A stretch of DNA of 28,036 nt from an uncultured Pseudomonadales bacterium (GTDB taxonomy: Bacteria; Patescibacteriota; Microgenomatia; UBA1400; RBG-16-45-19). The DNA is taken from NCBI GenBank assembly GCA_964591645.1, contig CAZQBH010000002.1:4651-32686 (forward strand). The letters run 5' to 3'. This document shows, piece by piece, positions 795 through 8,138 of the stretch; the stretch's first letter is position 1; each line of letters opens with the position of its first letter. The translations under genes were made by a program, and so were the position numbers. The notes beneath the pieces were generated by a model, which saw only the letters and a list, made by a program, of their open reading frames with translations, did no database searches and was not told the origin of the DNA.

Positions 795-2213
795 AATTTT
801 TATTTCAGTTTGCAACCGTTTCACACATTCTGCTTTACCTAAAACATGGATAACATCGAATAGCGGCGGGGTCGCTTCGGCCCCCGTTAAAGTTAAGCGG
901 ATGGACATAAAAGCAGGTCGAGGTTTCATACCTGATTTTTCCTGAAGACCACGGAGGGCTGTTTCGATGGCAGCCACACTCCAGTCAGTAATATCAGACA
1001 ACACGGTGCGCACTTGATTTAAGTAATCAGCCAGTTGATGGACTTCAAGTTTGGCAGTTTTGAGTAATTCCGGTTGATCAACTGCAGGGGTTTCATAAAA
1101 GAAGTTGGTCAGCATGGGCAGATCACTTAATTTCACCAATCGTTCTTTGATAAGCGGCAAAATGGTAACTAACAATTCTTTGGATAAGTTCTCGGGGCGG
1201 AATGGTTCAAGCCGCTTTAATAACTCATTATCAGCCATATCGCGAATCCACTGGCCATTTGTCCAATCTAGTTTCTTAAGGTCGACGATGGGACCTAAGA
1301 TATGCATATGTTCAAACTGAAATTTCTCGATTAGTTCATCAAGGCTAAAAATTTCTTTGCCATCGGGATGGTTCCAGACACGAGTTGCTAAAAAATTTAC
1401 AACTGTTTCGGGCAAGTATCCTTGATCAATATACCAACTCACAGCCGAGTGACCATGACGTTTAGATAATTTCGACTTATCAGGATTTCGTAATAACGGA
1501 GTGTGAATGAATTGAGGGATATCCCACCCAAAATACCGGTAGAGCAAGATGTGTTTTGGAGATGAGCTAATCCATTCTTCCCCCCGAATGACGTGGGTAA
1601 TATTCATGAGATGATCGTCGACTACAACAGCCAAATGATACGTCGGAAAACCATCAGATTTTAGCAAAACTTGATCATCAACCACGTTTGATTGGAATGA
1701 AATGTCACCTCGAACCATATCGTTCATTACAATAGTTTCATTATCAGGAATTTTCATTCGGATAACGTGTGGTTCGGTTTTGGCTCGTTCGGCGGCCTCC
1801 TTTGGATCCAGATGGCGACAATGACGATCATACATAGGCGGCAAACCGGCAGCCTGTCGTTCATTTCTGACTTGCTCTAAGCGTTCTGGAGAACAGAAAC
1901 AGTAATAGGCATGACCTGCGGAAATGAGTTGTTCCGCGAATTTTTTGTATATATCTAACCGCTCAGATTGGCGGTAAGGACCAACCGCACCACCATATCG
2001 AGGTCCTTCATCGGGTTTAATACCCAGCCATTCTAAAGCGTTGAAAATAGCATCTTCTGCTCCTTCAACAAAGCGTGCTCGATCAGTATCTTCTATTCGA
2101 ACAATAAATTGACCGCCGTTTTGTTTGGCGTAAACATAATCAAATAACGCTTGAAAGGCTGTCCCGATATGTGGGAAACCTGTAGGAGAAGGAGCAATGC
2201 GTGTACGAACCAT
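786..2213 (-). CDS. gltX: Glutamate--tRNA ligase
   Basis: RIAPSPTG, HIGH-like HIGT, RIEDTD, CFC...YDRHCR zinc knuckle, HVIRGEEW, KMSKS-like KLSKR. Confidence 0.98.
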   Translation of the reverse strand: MVRTRIAPSPTGFPHIGTAFQALFDYVYAKQNGGQFIVRIEDTDRARFVEGAEDAIFNALEWLGIKPDEGPRYGGAVGPYRQSERLDIYKKFAEQLISAGHAYYCFCSPERLEQVRNERQAAGLPPMYDRHCRHLDPKEAAERAKTEPHVIRMKIPDNETIVMNDMVRGDISFQSNVVDDQVLLKSDGFPTYHLAVVVDDHLMNITHVIRGEEWISSSPKHILLYRYFGWDIPQFIHTPLLRNPDKSKLSKRHGHSAVSWYIDQGYLPETVVNFLATRVWNHPDGKEIFSLDELIEKFQFEHMHILGPIVDLKKLDWTNGQWIRDMADNELLKRLEPFRPENLSKELLVTILPLIKERLVKLSDLPMLTNFFYETPAVDQPELLKTAKLEVHQLADYLNQVRTVLSDITDWSVAAIETALRGLQEKSGMKPRPAFMSIRLTLTGAEATPPLFDVIHVLGKAECVKRLQTEIKILA

Positions 2214-3369: not shown

Positions 3370-4280
3370 TCTACCCATTTAAATGTGGAATATACCCATT
3401 CAATGAGCTTGGTTGAGTCGGCGAAACGGTCCTGACTTTTGAGTACAACGGTAATGATATCGTGACCATTGCGAGTCACATAGGTTGCCAAACAATCCCC
3501 CGCCACTTCCGTCCAACCGGTTTTAACCCCGATGACACCGGGAACCGTCCACAGTAATTCGTTTAGGTTTTTTAGCTTATGCACGGTCTGTTTATCGGTG
3601 GTATAAACCGTATCTTCTTTAGTACCCACAAAACCCTTAAGCGTCTGGTTTTTCATGAGTTCATTAGCAATCAAGCTAAGGTCATAGGCACTACTATAAT
3701 GATCATCTGCTTCGACCCCAGATACATTGGAAAAATGCGTGTCTTTCAAACCAAGGGTAATAGCCCGCTGATTCATGAGATTAATAAAGGTGGAATACCC
3801 TCCCGCATGATGATCCGCCAAACTAACAGCAGCATCATTACCAGAATTAATCAGCATCGCTTCGATGAGATTCCTGACGGTTACCTTTTCCCCAGGATTC
3901 AAATCAACCGCATGACCAATCGCATCGGCAGCCCGAGTTACTACCACCGTTTCCTCCGGATCGTATTCAGTTTGGGCGACCAATGCGGTCATCATTTTGG
4001 TAGTGGAAGCAGGCATTAAACGTTCATGCTCATTTTTACCAAATATAAATTGACCGCTGGCGACGTCGTAAATTGCGACGGCTTGAGCTGAAATACTGGC
4101 AGGAAACGCACTCTCTTCGTGTTGCGCGGGAGGGAGGGCCATTTTATCTATTAGAGGGGTAACGGTTGTCGGTGAAGGTGACGCATTGGGTTGCCGCGGG
4201 GGATGGATAACTAAAAAATATCCTCCAACCCCTCCGATAATAACCATCAAACAAACGCAGACGATGATCAACCGTTTCAT
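3366..4280 (-). CDS. dacA: D-alanyl-D-alanine carboxypeptidase (peptidase S11), N-terminal membrane anchor
   Basis: SxxK (ASTTK), SxN (SGND) and KTG (GVKTGWT) penicillin-binding motifs; TM helix plus Pro-rich linker. Confidence 0.93.
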   Translation of the reverse strand: MKRLIIVCVCLMVIIGGVGGYFLVIHPPRQPNASPSPTTVTPLIDKMALPPAQHEESAFPASISAQAVAIYDVASGQFIFGKNEHERLMPASTTKMMTALVAQTEYDPEETVVVTRAADAIGHAVDLNPGEKVTVRNLIEAMLINSGNDAAVSLADHHAGGYSTFINLMNQRAITLGLKDTHFSNVSGVEADDHYSSAYDLSLIANELMKNQTLKGFVGTKEDTVYTTDKQTVHKLKNLNELLWTVPGVIGVKTGWTEVAGDCLATYVTRNGHDIITVVLKSQDRFADSTKLIEWVYSTFKWVD

Positions 4281-5626
4281 TATTCCGTTTCTTTACCTTT
4301 GGGTTGAGATAGTGATAAACGCGTATCGATTCGTTCCATATCGCGCGGGAATAAGCTGGCTTCCCGAATATTTTTGAGACCCAGGATTTGCATGGTTACG
4401 CGCTCGGCACCAAGAGCAAATCCCCCTAACGGAGGCACACCATACCGGAAGGATTGCAGATACAATTCAATATCTTCTGGTTTAAGACCCCATTGGGTAA
4501 CATGCTCCAGAATCTCTTCATAGGTATGCAACCGTTCACCTCCACTGCTCCATTCCACTCCCCGACCCAACAAATCAACACTATAGGCATAGGTGGGATC
4601 GGCGGGATCTGGAGCGACATAAAACGGTTTCTTGGCGGTAACAAAATGGGTAATAAAGATTAAGTCGGAACCAAGCTGTTCTTTGGCATATGCACAAATT
4701 TCACGCTCATCCTCGGGAGCTAGGTCTTTTTCTTGACGACAGTCACGCCCAGTCCGTTCAAAGATTATGTTTTGGGCTTCTCGAAGCTTTAACGCTGGAA
4801 TTTTTTCTGGAACCATAGGTAACGTTGCATTGTACAGAGCTAATTCGGTGGCGCATTTTTCCTGTACTTCATGAAAAATATATTTAATGACATATTCTTG
4901 CATCTCAATCACGTCTTCCCACGAATCCAAGAAGCCAAATTCTGCATCCAGACTGGTAGCTTCAGTGAGGTGCCGGGTGGTAACGGAGGGTTCAGCCCGG
5001 AAGATTTGATTAACAGAAAAGACCCGTTCAAAAGCGCCCACGAGCAACGATTTATATAGTTGAGGGCTCTGAGAAAGATATGCGTTTCGGTTAAAATAGC
5101 TGATCTTAAATACTTCCGCTCCCCCTTCAGGAACAGAAGAAATGATCGAGGGAGCTTGAAATTCCATAAAATCTTTGGCTTGTAATGCCCGTCTAAAGCT
5201 ATCAACCACCACTTGTTGGACTTTGAAAATGGCTTGGACTTTTGGATGCCGGAGAACGAGTGAACGATAATCGAGCTGAATGGGAAGTTCTGGATCGAGA
5301 TCTTCCTTGTTCATATCAAAGGGAAGTTCGGCTGCTTTGGAGATCAATTCAATTTTTTCAGCAACAACTTCGATTGTTCCGGTGGCCATTTTGGGATTTA
5401 TCAGTTTTTCCGGGCGGGCTTGGATTTTACCGGTTATGTAGATAACGTCCTCAGCATGAACACTGCTCGATAGTTCACCAAAAGCGAAGACTTGAACTTT
5501 ACCAGTTCGATCGCGCAGATCAATAAAAGAAATCTTGCCGTGATCTCGTTTGACATCCACCCAGCCTTTGAGTAAAACCGTCTCACCCACTTTGGAAACT
5601 GTGTCTTTGATAAGTGTGCGTTCCAT
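4280..5626 (-). CDS. aspS: Aspartate--tRNA ligase, short form (no GAD insertion), probably non-discriminating Asp/Asn
   Basis: OB-fold GWV..KRDHGKISFIDLRD, YLSQSPQLYK, motif 2 FRAEP, motif 3 GVPPLGGFALGAERV; 448 aa; AAGGAG SD. Confidence 0.95.
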   Translation of the reverse strand: MERTLIKDTVSKVGETVLLKGWVDVKRDHGKISFIDLRDRTGKVQVFAFGELSSSVHAEDVIYITGKIQARPEKLINPKMATGTIEVVAEKIELISKAAELPFDMNKEDLDPELPIQLDYRSLVLRHPKVQAIFKVQQVVVDSFRRALQAKDFMEFQAPSIISSVPEGGAEVFKISYFNRNAYLSQSPQLYKSLLVGAFERVFSVNQIFRAEPSVTTRHLTEATSLDAEFGFLDSWEDVIEMQEYVIKYIFHEVQEKCATELALYNATLPMVPEKIPALKLREAQNIIFERTGRDCRQEKDLAPEDEREICAYAKEQLGSDLIFITHFVTAKKPFYVAPDPADPTYAYSVDLLGRGVEWSSGGERLHTYEEILEHVTQWGLKPEDIELYLQSFRYGVPPLGGFALGAERVTMQILGLKNIREASLFPRDMERIDTRLSLSQPKGKETE

Positions 5627-5656: not shown

Positions 5657-5837
5657 AAAAAAAGATGGCATTCCAACATACATTTGTATGAAGGGTCCGG
5701 AGTACTCCGGGCGGTGCCACCTTACTTATTTCTCTTTCCTGCTATTACGGGCGTACCCGGCGTGGTTCTACTCGTCGAATCAAGGCTCGACTTTCTTCCT
5801 GCAGCTCTTCCGGTGTCAGCCGGAATCAAATGCTTGT
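5657..5837 (-). ncRNA. T-box riboswitch, ultrashort Stem I type, Asp (GAC) specifier
   Basis: Minus strand: GA-UUCCGG-[CUGACA]-CCGGAA-GA (Stem I with GA motif); GGAAGAA...AGUAGAACC (Stem II S-turn); CGGG-UACG-CCCG (Stem IIA); AAGG-UGGCACC-GC...CCUU (antiterminator, 5711-5723); U7 tract at 5663-5657. Confidence 0.9.
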
Positions 5838-5843
5838 TTTAGT

Positions 5844-5849
5844 ATTGTA
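5844..5849 (-). promoter_or_regulatory. -10 box (TACAAT) for the T-box/aspS transcript
   Basis: TACAAT lies about 14 nt before the start of Stem I; no convincing -35. Confidence 0.55.
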
Positions 5850-5917
5850 CTACATTACCAAAATCGATTACAGCTTTGATCGTATGATAATATCATATAA
5901 ATTGTTTGTGGTGATTT

Positions 5918-6097
5918 ATGCGAAGAATTGAAGATGATCCCAAAATATCTCCTAAGGAAGGTACTGTAGAACAGCGAGCTGCTGATTTGTTTGAACTAAT
6001 TGGTGATTTGGTTTATAAAATGTATGATTTAGGACCTGATAATCATCCTCATTCACAGGATTTGCCTGAACCTGAGAGTGACGAGGATTCCGCTTGA
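5918..6097 (+). CDS. Orphan 59-aa acidic protein
   Basis: Manual translation MRRIEDDPKISPKEGTVEQRAADLFELIGDLVYKMYDLGPDNHPHSQDLPEPESDEDSA; SD-like GGTGAT upstream; below the ORF-track cutoff. Confidence 0.55.
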   Translation: MRRIEDDPKISPKEGTVEQRAADLFELIGDLVYKMYDLGPDNHPHSQDLPEPESDEDSA

Positions 6098-6122
6098 CCT
6101 CTGTTTTGTCTTGTGATCTAAT
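6094..6122 (+). promoter_or_regulatory. Candidate sigma70 promoter TTGACC-N17-TCTAAT with TGn extension
   Basis: Good -35, 17-nt spacer and TG at 6114-6115, but the -10 lacks the conserved second-position A. Confidence 0.4.
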
Positions 6123-6129
6123 ACACGAT

Positions 6130-6204
6130 ATGTTTATTGTCTGTCACAGCCGTCATGTTATTGCTCAAATTACCCTTATTAAAGGAGCGGTTTTGGTGGA
6201 TTAG
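6130..6204 (+). CDS. Candidate 24-aa leader peptide MFIVCHSRHVIAQITLIKGAVLVD
   Basis: ATG 7 nt after the candidate -10 (leaderless position); stop TAG at 6202-6204 falls at the end of the antiterminator 5' strand. Confidence 0.3.
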   Translation: MFIVCHSRHVIAQITLIKGAVLVD

Positions 6205-6231
6205 TCACATGAAGACAGAGAATAATCAACC

Positions 6232-6260
6232 AAAACCTCCTCAAATACGGAGGTTTTTTT
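6232..6260 (+). terminator. Intrinsic terminator hairpin that also occludes the SD of the 73-aa ORF
   Basis: AAAACCTCC-tcaaatac-GGAGGTTTT-TTT, followed directly by ATG at 6261. Confidence 0.75.
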
Positions 6261-6482
6261 ATGCTTAATCATGATCAACTACAAACATTTATCCCGCCGG
6301 ATGTTAATAGGATCCGGAACGATATACGATTTGGGCACACTACTTTATTTGATTTGGAACAAGAGGGTTTGGATATGCTTAATTCACTTGGTGTTTATGC
6401 AAATCCTGAGGTAGTGATTGCCTGGGTCGAATCGATATTTAATTTGAGCGGTTCAGCCAGTGAGGACGATCTAATCAGCTAA
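6261..6482 (+). CDS. Orphan 73-aa acidic protein
   Basis: Perfect GGAGG SD 7 nt upstream; 12 D/E, 3 R, no K; 12-nt tail-to-tail overlap with recJ. Confidence 0.6.
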   Translation: MLNHDQLQTFIPPDVNRIRNDIRFGHTTLFDLEQEGLDMLNSLGVYANPEVVIAWVESIFNLSGSASEDDLIS

Positions 6483-8138
6483 CACAATGTCTTTGGCTAT
6501 TAGTTGAAGCGTAGTACGACCCCGCCAACTGTTGAGATTAAGAGTGGCAGCTATACGGATTGGTGATCCTGCGGGAAATGCGGATATTTCTGATCCATGA
6601 CCAAACCAAATGATAGGGATGGTTGATTGTCCTGGTTTGCCGGCAAAGTTGATCTTGAGATGTTTTCCCTCTTTACCTAACGCTTGGGTAGAAATGACCA
6701 CGCCTTGAATTGCAAATGTTGGCTGTGAATTGCCAATCCCAAATGGTTGAAGTTGCTGGAGGGCTTCATAGAGTGATTTGGTAATGTCGGTGAAATCCAC
6801 CTCAACGTCTAGGGTTAACGTTGGTTTAAGCATCGTCTCACTAATGATTTGACTTGCAGTAAAAATAAGGGCATTTTTAAAGTGTTCAATTTTTTCCGTT
6901 CGAATGGAAAAACCAGCAGCCATTGGATGACCACCTACCCCTTCCAACAAATCACTTTGTTGGCGAATAAGCTCGGTAATGTTGACCCCATTAATGGACC
7001 GGGCAGAAGCTTTGGAAATTCCCGGCTTCCGGCTAATGATAATAGTGGGTCGGTAATATATTTCGGCCAGTTTACCAGCAACTAAACCAATTACTCCTTC
7101 ATGAAATTGGTCGTCATCAAGAACAATAATTTTTTGGCTCATCTCAAAATTGAACAGTAAATTTTTTGCTCGATCTAATAATTCTTGAGTCAAATCTTGT
7201 CGATTATGATTGGTGGAACCTAAGGTGTTAGCCAATGTGGACGCACGAGTGGAATTTTTGGTACACAGGAGGCGCAGTGAGTCGAGGGCGTGTTCCATTC
7301 TACCCATCGCATTAAGCCGGGGAGCAATTACATAGTTCACGTGATAGGGAGTAATGGTTTCATCCGGACTTATGCCAGCCTCCGCCAGGAGTGCTTTGAT
7401 GCCTGGCCTTTGGGATTGCTGCAGTGCAACAAGTCCATATTTAACGAGACTCCGATTCGTGTTGGTTAACGGCATCATATCGGATATGGTGCCGATGCAG
7501 GCAAGGTCGAGTGTATTTGGGGCATTTTCAGGTTGCAAGGTTTTGGCGATCATCCACGCGACCCCAGCACCACAGAGTGAAGTTGTATGCACAATTGCAT
7601 TGGCGTGAGGTTTCTCATCCCCTATTTGATGATGGTCAGTGATAATGATAGGAATACCTTTGTCGTTGATCCACTCAACTGCTTGATTGGCGACGATACC
7701 ATTATCAACGGTAATGATTAACGGTACTGTTTCAGGTGTTAGCAACAGGGCATCTTCAAGTCCTTTTATGGATAATCCATACCCATGGTTTTCGCGACTT
7801 GGGATAAAGGGAAATGCTTTTGCCCCCATGTGGGTGAGGGTTTCCCAAAGAATTGCTGTAGCGGTGACTCCATCAGCATCGTAATCACCATAGATAAGTA
7901 TGGGTTGATGATCAGCGATCGCTTGAGTGATGATGCGAATTGCAGCTTTTAAGTCATCCGCATTAATTCCGGTATCTGATGGATCAATATCTAGGGGAGA
8001 GGGAGGATTTAGAAAACGATCAATGGCCTCGCGGGTACGGAGGTCTCGGTTAGATAAGACAGCATCAACAATAGCCTGCTCTCTATCATTGGCTGTTTCA
8101 TTGACATTTGATTTAATGATCCATTGCATAGTCTTCAT
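6471..8138 (-). CDS. recJ: Single-stranded-DNA-specific exonuclease RecJ
   Basis: YGDYDADG, VDNG, ITDHH (DHH), GTISDMMPL, APRLNAMGR, and DHHA1 ASARS...GGH. Confidence 0.96.
   Translation of the reverse strand: MKTMQWIIKSNVNETANDREQAIVDAVLSNRDLRTREAIDRFLNPPSPLDIDPSDTGINADDLKAAIRIITQAIADHQPILIYGDYDADGVTATAILWETLTHMGAKAFPFIPSRENHGYGLSIKGLEDALLLTPETVPLIITVDNGIVANQAVEWINDKGIPIIITDHHQIGDEKPHANAIVHTTSLCGAGVAWMIAKTLQPENAPNTLDLACIGTISDMMPLTNTNRSLVKYGLVALQQSQRPGIKALLAEAGISPDETITPYHVNYVIAPRLNAMGRMEHALDSLRLLCTKNSTRASTLANTLGSTNHNRQDLTQELLDRAKNLLFNFEMSQKIIVLDDDQFHEGVIGLVAGKLAEIYYRPTIIISRKPGISKASARSINGVNITELIRQQSDLLEGVGGHPMAAGFSIRTEKIEHFKNALIFTASQIISETMLKPTLTLDVEVDFTDITKSLYEALQQLQPFGIGNSQPTFAIQGVVISTQALGKEGKHLKINFAGKPGQSTIPIIWFGHGSEISAFPAGSPIRIAATLNLNSWRGRTTLQLIAKDIVLAD

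Follow-up and report, generated by a model that had tools for sequence, protein, structure and literature searches.

A probable leader-peptide transcription attenuator upstream of a 73-aa orphan gene in a Patescibacteriota genome, and its relatives across the order

The gap between aspS and recJ in an uncultured bacterium (GTDB lineage Patescibacteriota; Microgenomatia; UBA1400; RBG-16-45-19) contains about 130 nt, at positions 6130-6260, that can pair in mutually exclusive ways directly in front of a 73-aa orphan gene. Positions are those of the window, the whole stretch of 28,036 nucleotides that was analysed. What kind of element is this, and what does it sense? The first-pass annotation proposed an unrecognised three-state RNA switch made of an anti-antiterminator (A), an antiterminator (B) and a terminator (C), with a stand-alone small RNA as the fallback. 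The element is a real, conserved cis-regulator. With a probability of about 0.72, we consider it to be a transcription attenuator of the ribosome-mediated leader-peptide type, carried on a transcript that is probably leaderless. This reading is based on the conservation and covariation of B, C and a small hairpin (P), on the conserved ORF and its position, and on the agreement of codon runs with the downstream genes among sister copies of the element.

The regulatory unit spans from a promoter (-35 box at 6094-6099, -10 box at 6117-6122) to the U-tract of a terminator (6254-6260), and it is the only part of the aspS-recJ gap kept at the DNA level in relatives. When window 5880-6500 was compared with 40 relatives by blastn, only query positions 214-384 (window 6093-6263) aligned, with 72-73% identity in three genomes, two of them congeneric and the third from the same family. 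The small ORFs on both sides of the unit showed no DNA-level conservation in these 40 relatives. Synteny is kept in the order aspS (minus strand), small ORF, element (plus strand), small ORFs and recJ (minus strand), and the genes downstream of the element vary from genus to genus. The genomes are small, with 1.25 Mb for that of the window and 0.5-1.4 Mb for the relatives. Besides the element, the gap has only small orphan ORFs that vary between genera (window 5918-6097 and 6261-6482, both on the plus strand), a small hypervariable islet that surrounds a conserved regulatory RNA.

The element has relatives far beyond the genus. A covariance model built on four sequences (R1) gave full-length matches in 6 of the 8 genomes of the family and in 29 of the 151 genomes of the order. 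The model was rebuilt on 31 sequences (R2, order counts at E <= 0.001) and then yielded 1-4 copies from every one of the 13 nearest genomes, and copies from 91 of the 151 genomes of the order, covering 15 of its 19 families and often reaching 2-4 copies per genome. In a phylum-wide sample of 151 genomes, just 4 were matched outside the order. The genome of the window has a single copy; its other R2 match is 24.5-bit noise, and no further copy was found among the 96 terminator-like sites scanned there. A pattern scan for GGTTTTGGTGG, a gap of 15-45 nt and ACCAAAACC over genome_contigs and metagenome_contigs returned chance matches and one new member, L201, among the matches listed.

Some copies are clustered. 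L019 has three on one strand within ~1.2 kb (460-606, 1059-1217 and 1501-1645, plus strand), and L295 has two adjacent copies on the same strand (1365-1494 and 1501-1647, plus strand). A separate terminator accompanies each of these copies, and a separate leader ORF most of them, an arrangement that suggests duplication or serial control of small ORFs.

The promoter of the unit can be read from the sequence. Its -35 box, TTGACC (6094-6099, plus strand), is kept in the orthologues of two relatives (G001 and G002). It is followed after 17 nt by an extended -10 element, in which TG (6114-6115) and TCTAAT (6117-6122) are separated by one base. The -35 box overlaps the TGA stop codon (6095-6097) of an upstream 59-aa ORF. 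Only 7 nt lie between the end of the -10 box and the leader ATG, and the 5' UTR predicted from the putative start site is 0-1 nt. The same spacing recurs in the family, in which the ATG lies 6-11 nt past a -10-like hexamer, and a promoter match of at least 9/12 was present directly upstream of the leader ATG in 26 of 49 copies, as compared with 2.7% of shuffles. With 7 nt between the -10 box and the leader ORF, a leaderless or nearly leaderless transcript is probable, as counted from the predicted start site. Two RNA-library runs contain parts of the stretch as assembled contigs, from which starts, ends and levels are not readable. A 151-nt RNA-library contig (6106-6256, depth 3) begins upstream of the predicted start site and is indistinguishable from DNA carry-over.

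The leader ORF has 24 codons (MFIVCHSRHVIAQITLIKGAVLVD, 6130-6204, plus strand), and its UAG stop codon (TAG in the DNA, 6202-6204) lies within the 5' arm of B. Equivalent ORFs of 16-31 codons begin with ATG in 28 of the 29 first matches and with GTG in the remaining one (read by eye), and their stop codons are located 45-67 nt upstream of the U-tract in these 29. Across the family the leader stop coincides with the 3' end of the 5' arm of B or lies close to it. Of 58 copies, 54 had at least one open frame in a structure-anchored region of 60 nt, versus 40 expected. In the orthologues, indels upstream of hairpin P are whole codons and keep the frame, but the frame shifts across B. This difference indicates that B is constrained as RNA and the upstream part as a reading frame. 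Two longer ORFs, 6137-6268 (43 aa) and 6094-6204 (36 aa), were considered as conserved proteins and rejected, since the orthologues change frame across B. The sequence of the leader peptide is poorly conserved across the order, and its conservation is inseparable from constraints on the RNA because pairing regions 1 and 2 sit within the ORF. We infer that the ORF at 6130-6204 is translated.

The pairings A, B and C drawn in the first-pass annotation are all literally present in the window. The minimum free energy (MFE) fold of 6130-6260 is exactly A plus C at -35.3 kcal/mol, with z = -3.3 against 200 dinucleotide shuffles and z = -3.2 when 32 extra bases upstream are included. Helix A, which combines 6134-6145/6214-6225, 6153-6158/6207-6212 and 6161-6166/6185-6190 on the plus strand, is part of this fold, but it is not conserved as drawn. 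It is 51.6% paired in seven orthologues versus 47% in shuffles, and its two inner helices are paired in 31-62% of the cells. The long helix therefore appears largely specific to the window. The conserved strand of the predicted anti-antiterminator is region 1 (CCGUCA, 6150-6155, plus strand), which pairs with UGGUGG at 6194-6199. This pairing is present in 95.2% of the cells of the seven orthologues, as compared with 24-64% for slid controls, and its changes are one-sided and wobble-compatible only, with no double changes. Against shuffles of region 1, the 1:2 pairing has z = -2.08 in the window and a mean z of -1.18 in the family (14 of 58 below -2), and against shuffles of region 2 the duplex has a mean z of -1.0, which is not significant. 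The statistics across the family thus weakly support the predicted anti-antiterminator.

The antiterminator and hairpin P are under much clearer selection. The 5' arm of B, region 2, occupies 6183-6203 (core 6189-6203, extension AGGA 6183-6186, plus strand) and includes the last codons of the leader ORF. Its 3' arm, region 3, occupies 6223-6241 (6223-6237 plus UCCU 6238-6241, plus strand) and overlaps the 5' arm of the terminator (6232-6240). Hairpin P (6174-6185, plus strand) consists of CCUU, the loop AUUA and AAGG; its three modelled pairs covary in the 58-sequence alignment, and codons 16-17 of the leader, CUU AUU (Leu-Ile, 6175-6180), are within its 5' strand and loop. Over 58 homologues in the R2 alignment, the 17 pairs of B and P were paired in 87.3% of the cells versus 59.2 ± 1.2% in shuffles. 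Double-change cells numbered 211 versus 67 ± 7, and the covariation score was 0.467 versus 0.139. Moving the partner by 1-3 columns lowered the pairing to at most 54%. These pair-count alignments were fitted to the structure of the model, which somewhat inflates the pairing, and the margin for B and P is still large. In the alignment of the orthologues the B strands are invariant apart from one compensatory change, GAUUA/UAAUC to GUUUA/UAAAC.

B is also detected independently of any alignment. When the last 24 nt of the ORF and 6 nt beyond its stop, a stretch defined without reference to structure, were paired with the terminator 5'-arm region, the mean z was -3.9, with z below -2 in 23 of 30. 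When the 3' arm of the terminator was withheld, the 5' arm paired upstream in 24 of 30 homologues, in most of them near the leader stop codon.

Terminator C is an intrinsic terminator (6232-6260, plus strand), with the stem 6232-6240/6249-6257, the loop 6241-6248 and a U-tract of seven U (6254-6260). In seven family-level orthologues it is 96.8% paired with 7 compensatory cells, versus at most 70% for slid controls. Its stem takes the forms CCUCC/GGAGG, CCCCGC/GCGGGG and CCCGC/GCGGG by compensatory change, with nine distinct words across the family. The 3' arm of C contains the SD of the next gene, GGAGG (6249-6253), 7 nt before the ATG at 6261, as the first-pass annotation had pointed out. 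These results support the proposed three-state logic of a predicted anti-antiterminator, an antiterminator and a terminator. Of the three helices for which covariation had been suggested as a check, B and C are conserved and covary, and helix A is not conserved.

The sister copies found with R2 point to the mechanism. Their downstream genes were assigned by Pfam and BLAST clustering. His runs such as HTHHHHH precede the HisRS gene hisS in three copies, with two small ORFs intervening in one of them. Phe-rich leaders, most with a clear Phe run, precede the PheRS alpha gene pheS in eight copies, and the run FYFFFFF precedes the prephenate dehydratase gene pheA. A CCC run is located before a PIG-L deacetylase gene and the CysRS gene cysS, a CC pair before a PALP enzyme (a PLP-enzyme gene of the cysteine-synthase fold family), and a Tyr/Phe-rich leader before a class I/II aminotransferase gene. 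The His, Phe, Cys and Tyr runs all fall in one nine-codon window anchored on the structure, which ends ~10 nt before B. Codon runs that match the downstream genes are the defining signature of ribosome-mediated attenuation. Because of this match in the sister copies, the element is better read as a leader-peptide attenuator than as a ligand riboswitch, and an aptamer is excluded because the supposed sensor sequence is free to turn into any codon run.

A metabolite- or ion-binding riboswitch of an undescribed class would share the three mutually exclusive helices, and it would also account for the failure of the element to match any Rfam family. However, nothing resembling a conserved aptamer core is present. 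Upstream of B lies an ORF whose sequence can become a His, Phe or Cys run on the same scaffold, and the sole conserved local structure in it is a hairpin of 3-4 bp. We consider a riboswitch of this kind extremely improbable. The likeness to riboswitches drawn in the first-pass annotation is not borne out by this region, a conserved, probably leaderless ORF with a codon content that tracks the downstream gene.

Two groups of genes behind such leaders have unusual features of their own. In L035 (1641-3134, plus strand) and L295 (1803-3146, plus strand), genes behind Phe-rich leaders encode a PheRS alpha that is extended at its N terminus; the extension corresponds to the C-terminal part of AlaRS model PF01411 and precedes the Phe_tRNA-synt_N and class II core. 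In L279 (1633-3134, plus strand), a leader with the Cys run TTCCCVA is followed by a PIG-L-family deacetylase gene and then cysS. Among the PIG-L enzymes are some that act in the synthesis of low-molecular-weight thiols, which would be unexpected in a reduced genome.

How would the attenuator work in the window? RNA polymerase would start ~7-8 nt past TCTAAT, which would place the 5' end of the RNA at the leader AUG (6130) or directly beside it, and a ribosome would translate the 24-codon leader while the polymerase proceeds. A ribosome that reaches the UAG at 6202-6204 would cover region 2 (6183-6203) and block B; C (6232-6257 plus the U-tract) would then form and transcription would stop at ~6260, the predicted 3' end. 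If the ribosome stalls with its A site at up to about codon 16, region 2 would be free and the anti-antiterminator strands in the ORF would be occupied. B (6189-6203/6223-6237) would then form and capture the 5' arm of the terminator, the polymerase would read through, and the SD GGAGG of the 73-aa gene would be left unpaired. If the leader is not translated, the first half of the ORF would pair with region 2 and the loop of B, and C would terminate transcription. Likely sites of stalling are the Ile/Leu codons 11, 14, 16 and 17, of which 16-17 (CUU AUU) are in hairpin P.

A ribosome-mask (footprint) simulation on the window sequence gave a consistent picture. Without a ribosome, A and C formed. 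With the A site at codons 2-16 and nascent RNA up to 6249, B formed with 14/14 pairs. Once the A site had reached codon 17, and from there up to and including the stop codon, B was absent (0 pairs) and C formed with 9/9 pairs. The helix energies are -12.2 kcal/mol for A, -15.7 kcal/mol for B and -12.0 kcal/mol for C. The simulation and these energies together suggest that the switch would be off when the leader is either fully translated or untranslated, and on with a stall in the first two-thirds of the leader.

The signal of the window copy is less clear than that of its sisters. Its sensing stretch, HVIAQITLI, has three Ile and one Leu in nine codons, without a run of identical codons. In an AT-rich genome, a nine-codon stretch with 3-4 Ile/Leu is only mildly enriched. 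The stretches of the orthologues (QMIQVIAFL, QMFQVITLL, IVAQFITLT, QPFNSIRLI and others) have 2-3 Ile/Leu codons, one of them without Ile. About 25 other copies in the order are Ile/Leu-rich at this place, for example LIIVLINLF, ILSLILILG and TLILINLLK, and they usually have CUU-AUU in frame at the tip of hairpin P. The genes downstream of this class gave no Pfam match in 10 of 10 cases and no BLAST clusters. Judged by its codons and its neighbour, the window copy belongs to this Ile/Leu-rich class, which precedes unrelated small orphan genes. By homology of position with the other classes, a stall would be most likely at the Ile/Leu codons. On this analysis we put forward Ile/Leu charging as the signal of the window copy tentatively, at somewhat less than even odds.

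The same architecture could instead sense the general speed of translation or the availability of ribosomes, so that any slowing in codons 2-16 would open B and induce the orphan gene. A general signal of this kind would fit the lack of a codon run in the window copy, targets that are orphans unrelated to amino-acid metabolism, and the simulation, in which a stall anywhere in codons 2-16 yielded B. It would also bring the window copy close to the ermC-type and other antibiotic-responsive leaders, in which a short upstream ORF and a stalled ribosome remodel the downstream RNA and no cognate codon run is needed. ermC controls translation and not termination (PMC2965389), and, unlike in these systems, no resistance gene lies downstream of the window element. 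The sister copies, however, are clearly amino-acid specific on the same scaffold. Moreover, CUU-AUU or similar Leu/Ile codons recur at the tip of P in ~25 copies, and there they occupy the site that His, Phe and Cys runs occupy in other copies. A general translation signal is therefore a serious reading that we nevertheless consider unlikely.

The gene under the predicted control of the window element (6261-6482, plus strand) starts one base after the U-tract and encodes a protein of 73 aa, predicted to be a small four-helix protein. Its product is 44% identical (E = 5e-14) to that of a 65-aa ORF in the corresponding position of G002, where alignment at the DNA level is already lost, and in this sense the gene is regarded as real. 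No Pfam match was found, no other homologue in a search of 5.8 billion proteins and nothing in the ESM Atlas. Its AlphaFold model has a pLDDT of 69.7 and no fold match by Foldseek against AFDB clusters (best E = 1.2). The first-pass annotation called this gene an orphan, and it has indeed neither family nor fold match, the ORF in G002 being the sole homologue found. The target of the window copy has no link to Ile or Leu, in contrast to HisRS, PheRS, CysRS and prephenate dehydratase in the sister copies, which are linked to their codon runs.

The main product of the locus might instead act in trans. The ~130-nt terminated RNA could be a small RNA, or the 24-aa peptide a functional micropeptide, in which case the orphan gene downstream would be a bystander. 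In favour of this reading, the unit carries a promoter and a strong terminator of its own, neither flanking ORF is nearly as well conserved, and the downstream genes differ between genera. The leader products rnTrpL and peTrpL of Sinorhizobium provide precedents (PMC6614838, PMC7298713). Against this stands the covarying competition of B and C, which a plain small-RNA terminator does not need. The next gene, whose SD is part of the terminator stem, begins one base past the U-tract, the sister copies regulate cognate aaRS genes in cis, and the poor conservation of the peptide across the order speaks against a micropeptide. We consider a trans-acting main product very unlikely. The small-RNA fallback of the first-pass annotation is thus right in that the unit has its own promoter and terminator, and an added role of this kind is possible but not needed. 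A co-oriented ORF adjoins, and the alternative helix B is under selection. A housekeeping RNA was also considered and set aside as unnecessary given the ORF and the attenuator logic of the element. A 6S RNA candidate is located elsewhere (G000:C46:3528-3689, minus strand), below threshold at 35.2 bits against a gathering score of 46.4, and the genome gave no match to the small SRP RNA with RF00169.

How does the leader-peptide attenuator compare with known systems? Anywhere in the whole window, no Rfam family matched at gathering score. The claim that the cis-regulator is unrecognised therefore stands in the sense that it is absent from Rfam. At permissive thresholds the element matched generic leader models, each far below its gathering score: Phe_leader (RF01859, 27.2 versus 55 bits), Trp_leader (RF00513, 22.3 versus 41 bits) and Leu_leader (RF00512, 19.2 versus 50 bits). 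The nearest known systems are the enterobacterial attenuators of trp, his, pheA, leu, ilvGMEDA, thr and, with PheM, pheST (RF00513, RF00514, RF01859, RF00512, RF00506). In common with them, the element has a short ORF, alternative pairings (2:3 and 3:4, with a predicted 1:2) and an intrinsic terminator; in the sister copies, the regulatory codons are also located where a ribosome that stalls on them would release the antiterminator. Escherichia coli pheST is mirrored by the sister copies with Phe-rich leaders before pheS. Unlike the enterobacterial leaders, the element is probably leaderless and lacks an SD, and it shares neither their sequence nor membership in their models. In this order, most targets are aaRS genes or orphans, not biosynthetic operons, and the window copy has no codon run.

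Leaderless leader-peptide attenuators are described in Actinobacteria. They include the mycobacterial polycysteine sORFs (bioRxiv 10.1101/834739), and the three-hairpin attenuator of Corynebacterium glutamicum ilvBNC has a leaderless arrangement as well (PMC11857589). These leaders share with the present family clusters of amino-acid-specific codons and a transcription start, predicted for the present family, that coincides with the start codon or directly adjoins it. The Cys-run copies of the order parallel the mycobacterial Cys leaders in these two respects. The two groups differ in phylum and are unrelated in sequence, and the elements described here possess a clear intrinsic terminator and an antiterminator that covaries.

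T-box riboswitches perform the same task, in that they set aaRS expression by tRNA charging through competition between an antiterminator and a terminator. Unlike a T-box, the element would read charging through the ribosome and not by direct binding of tRNA, and on the plus strand of 6100-6260 neither a specifier loop nor a T-box match was found. A weak, sub-threshold T-box match on the minus strand (5688-5880, 27.1 bits, E = 8e-4) lies in the leader of the divergent aspS (4280-5626, minus strand). Switches between T-box and leader-peptide control have been noted for hisS (PMC2965389). Taken together, the element is most likely a new family within leader-peptide attenuation, which is a known mechanism, and not a new riboswitch class.

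Most of the documented cases of leader-peptide attenuation come from Proteobacteria, Actinobacteria and a few Firmicutes (PMC2965389). In the literature, no paper was found that links leader peptides or attenuation to Patescibacteria or the candidate phyla radiation. With the family described here, an order with genomes of ~1 Mb would tie aaRS genes to tRNA charging by one conserved, probably leaderless scaffold, alongside T-boxes. A covariance model for this family, which Rfam does not have, should help to annotate the intergenic regions of such genomes and to remove spurious 'hypothetical protein' calls from them. The class of the window copy, which would control orphan genes, provides a handle on when those unknown proteins are made.

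A broader speculation, which we regard as rather doubtful, is that one leaderless scaffold has diversified into a sensing system. The His, Phe, Cys and Tyr classes would serve aaRS and amino-acid genes, and the Ile/Leu class would serve orphan genes when translation falters. If so, the Ile/Leu class, which is the largest, would be a starvation- or stress-induced programme of unknown, fast-evolving, lineage-specific small proteins, and the abundant terminated RNA or the 24-aa peptide might additionally act in trans.
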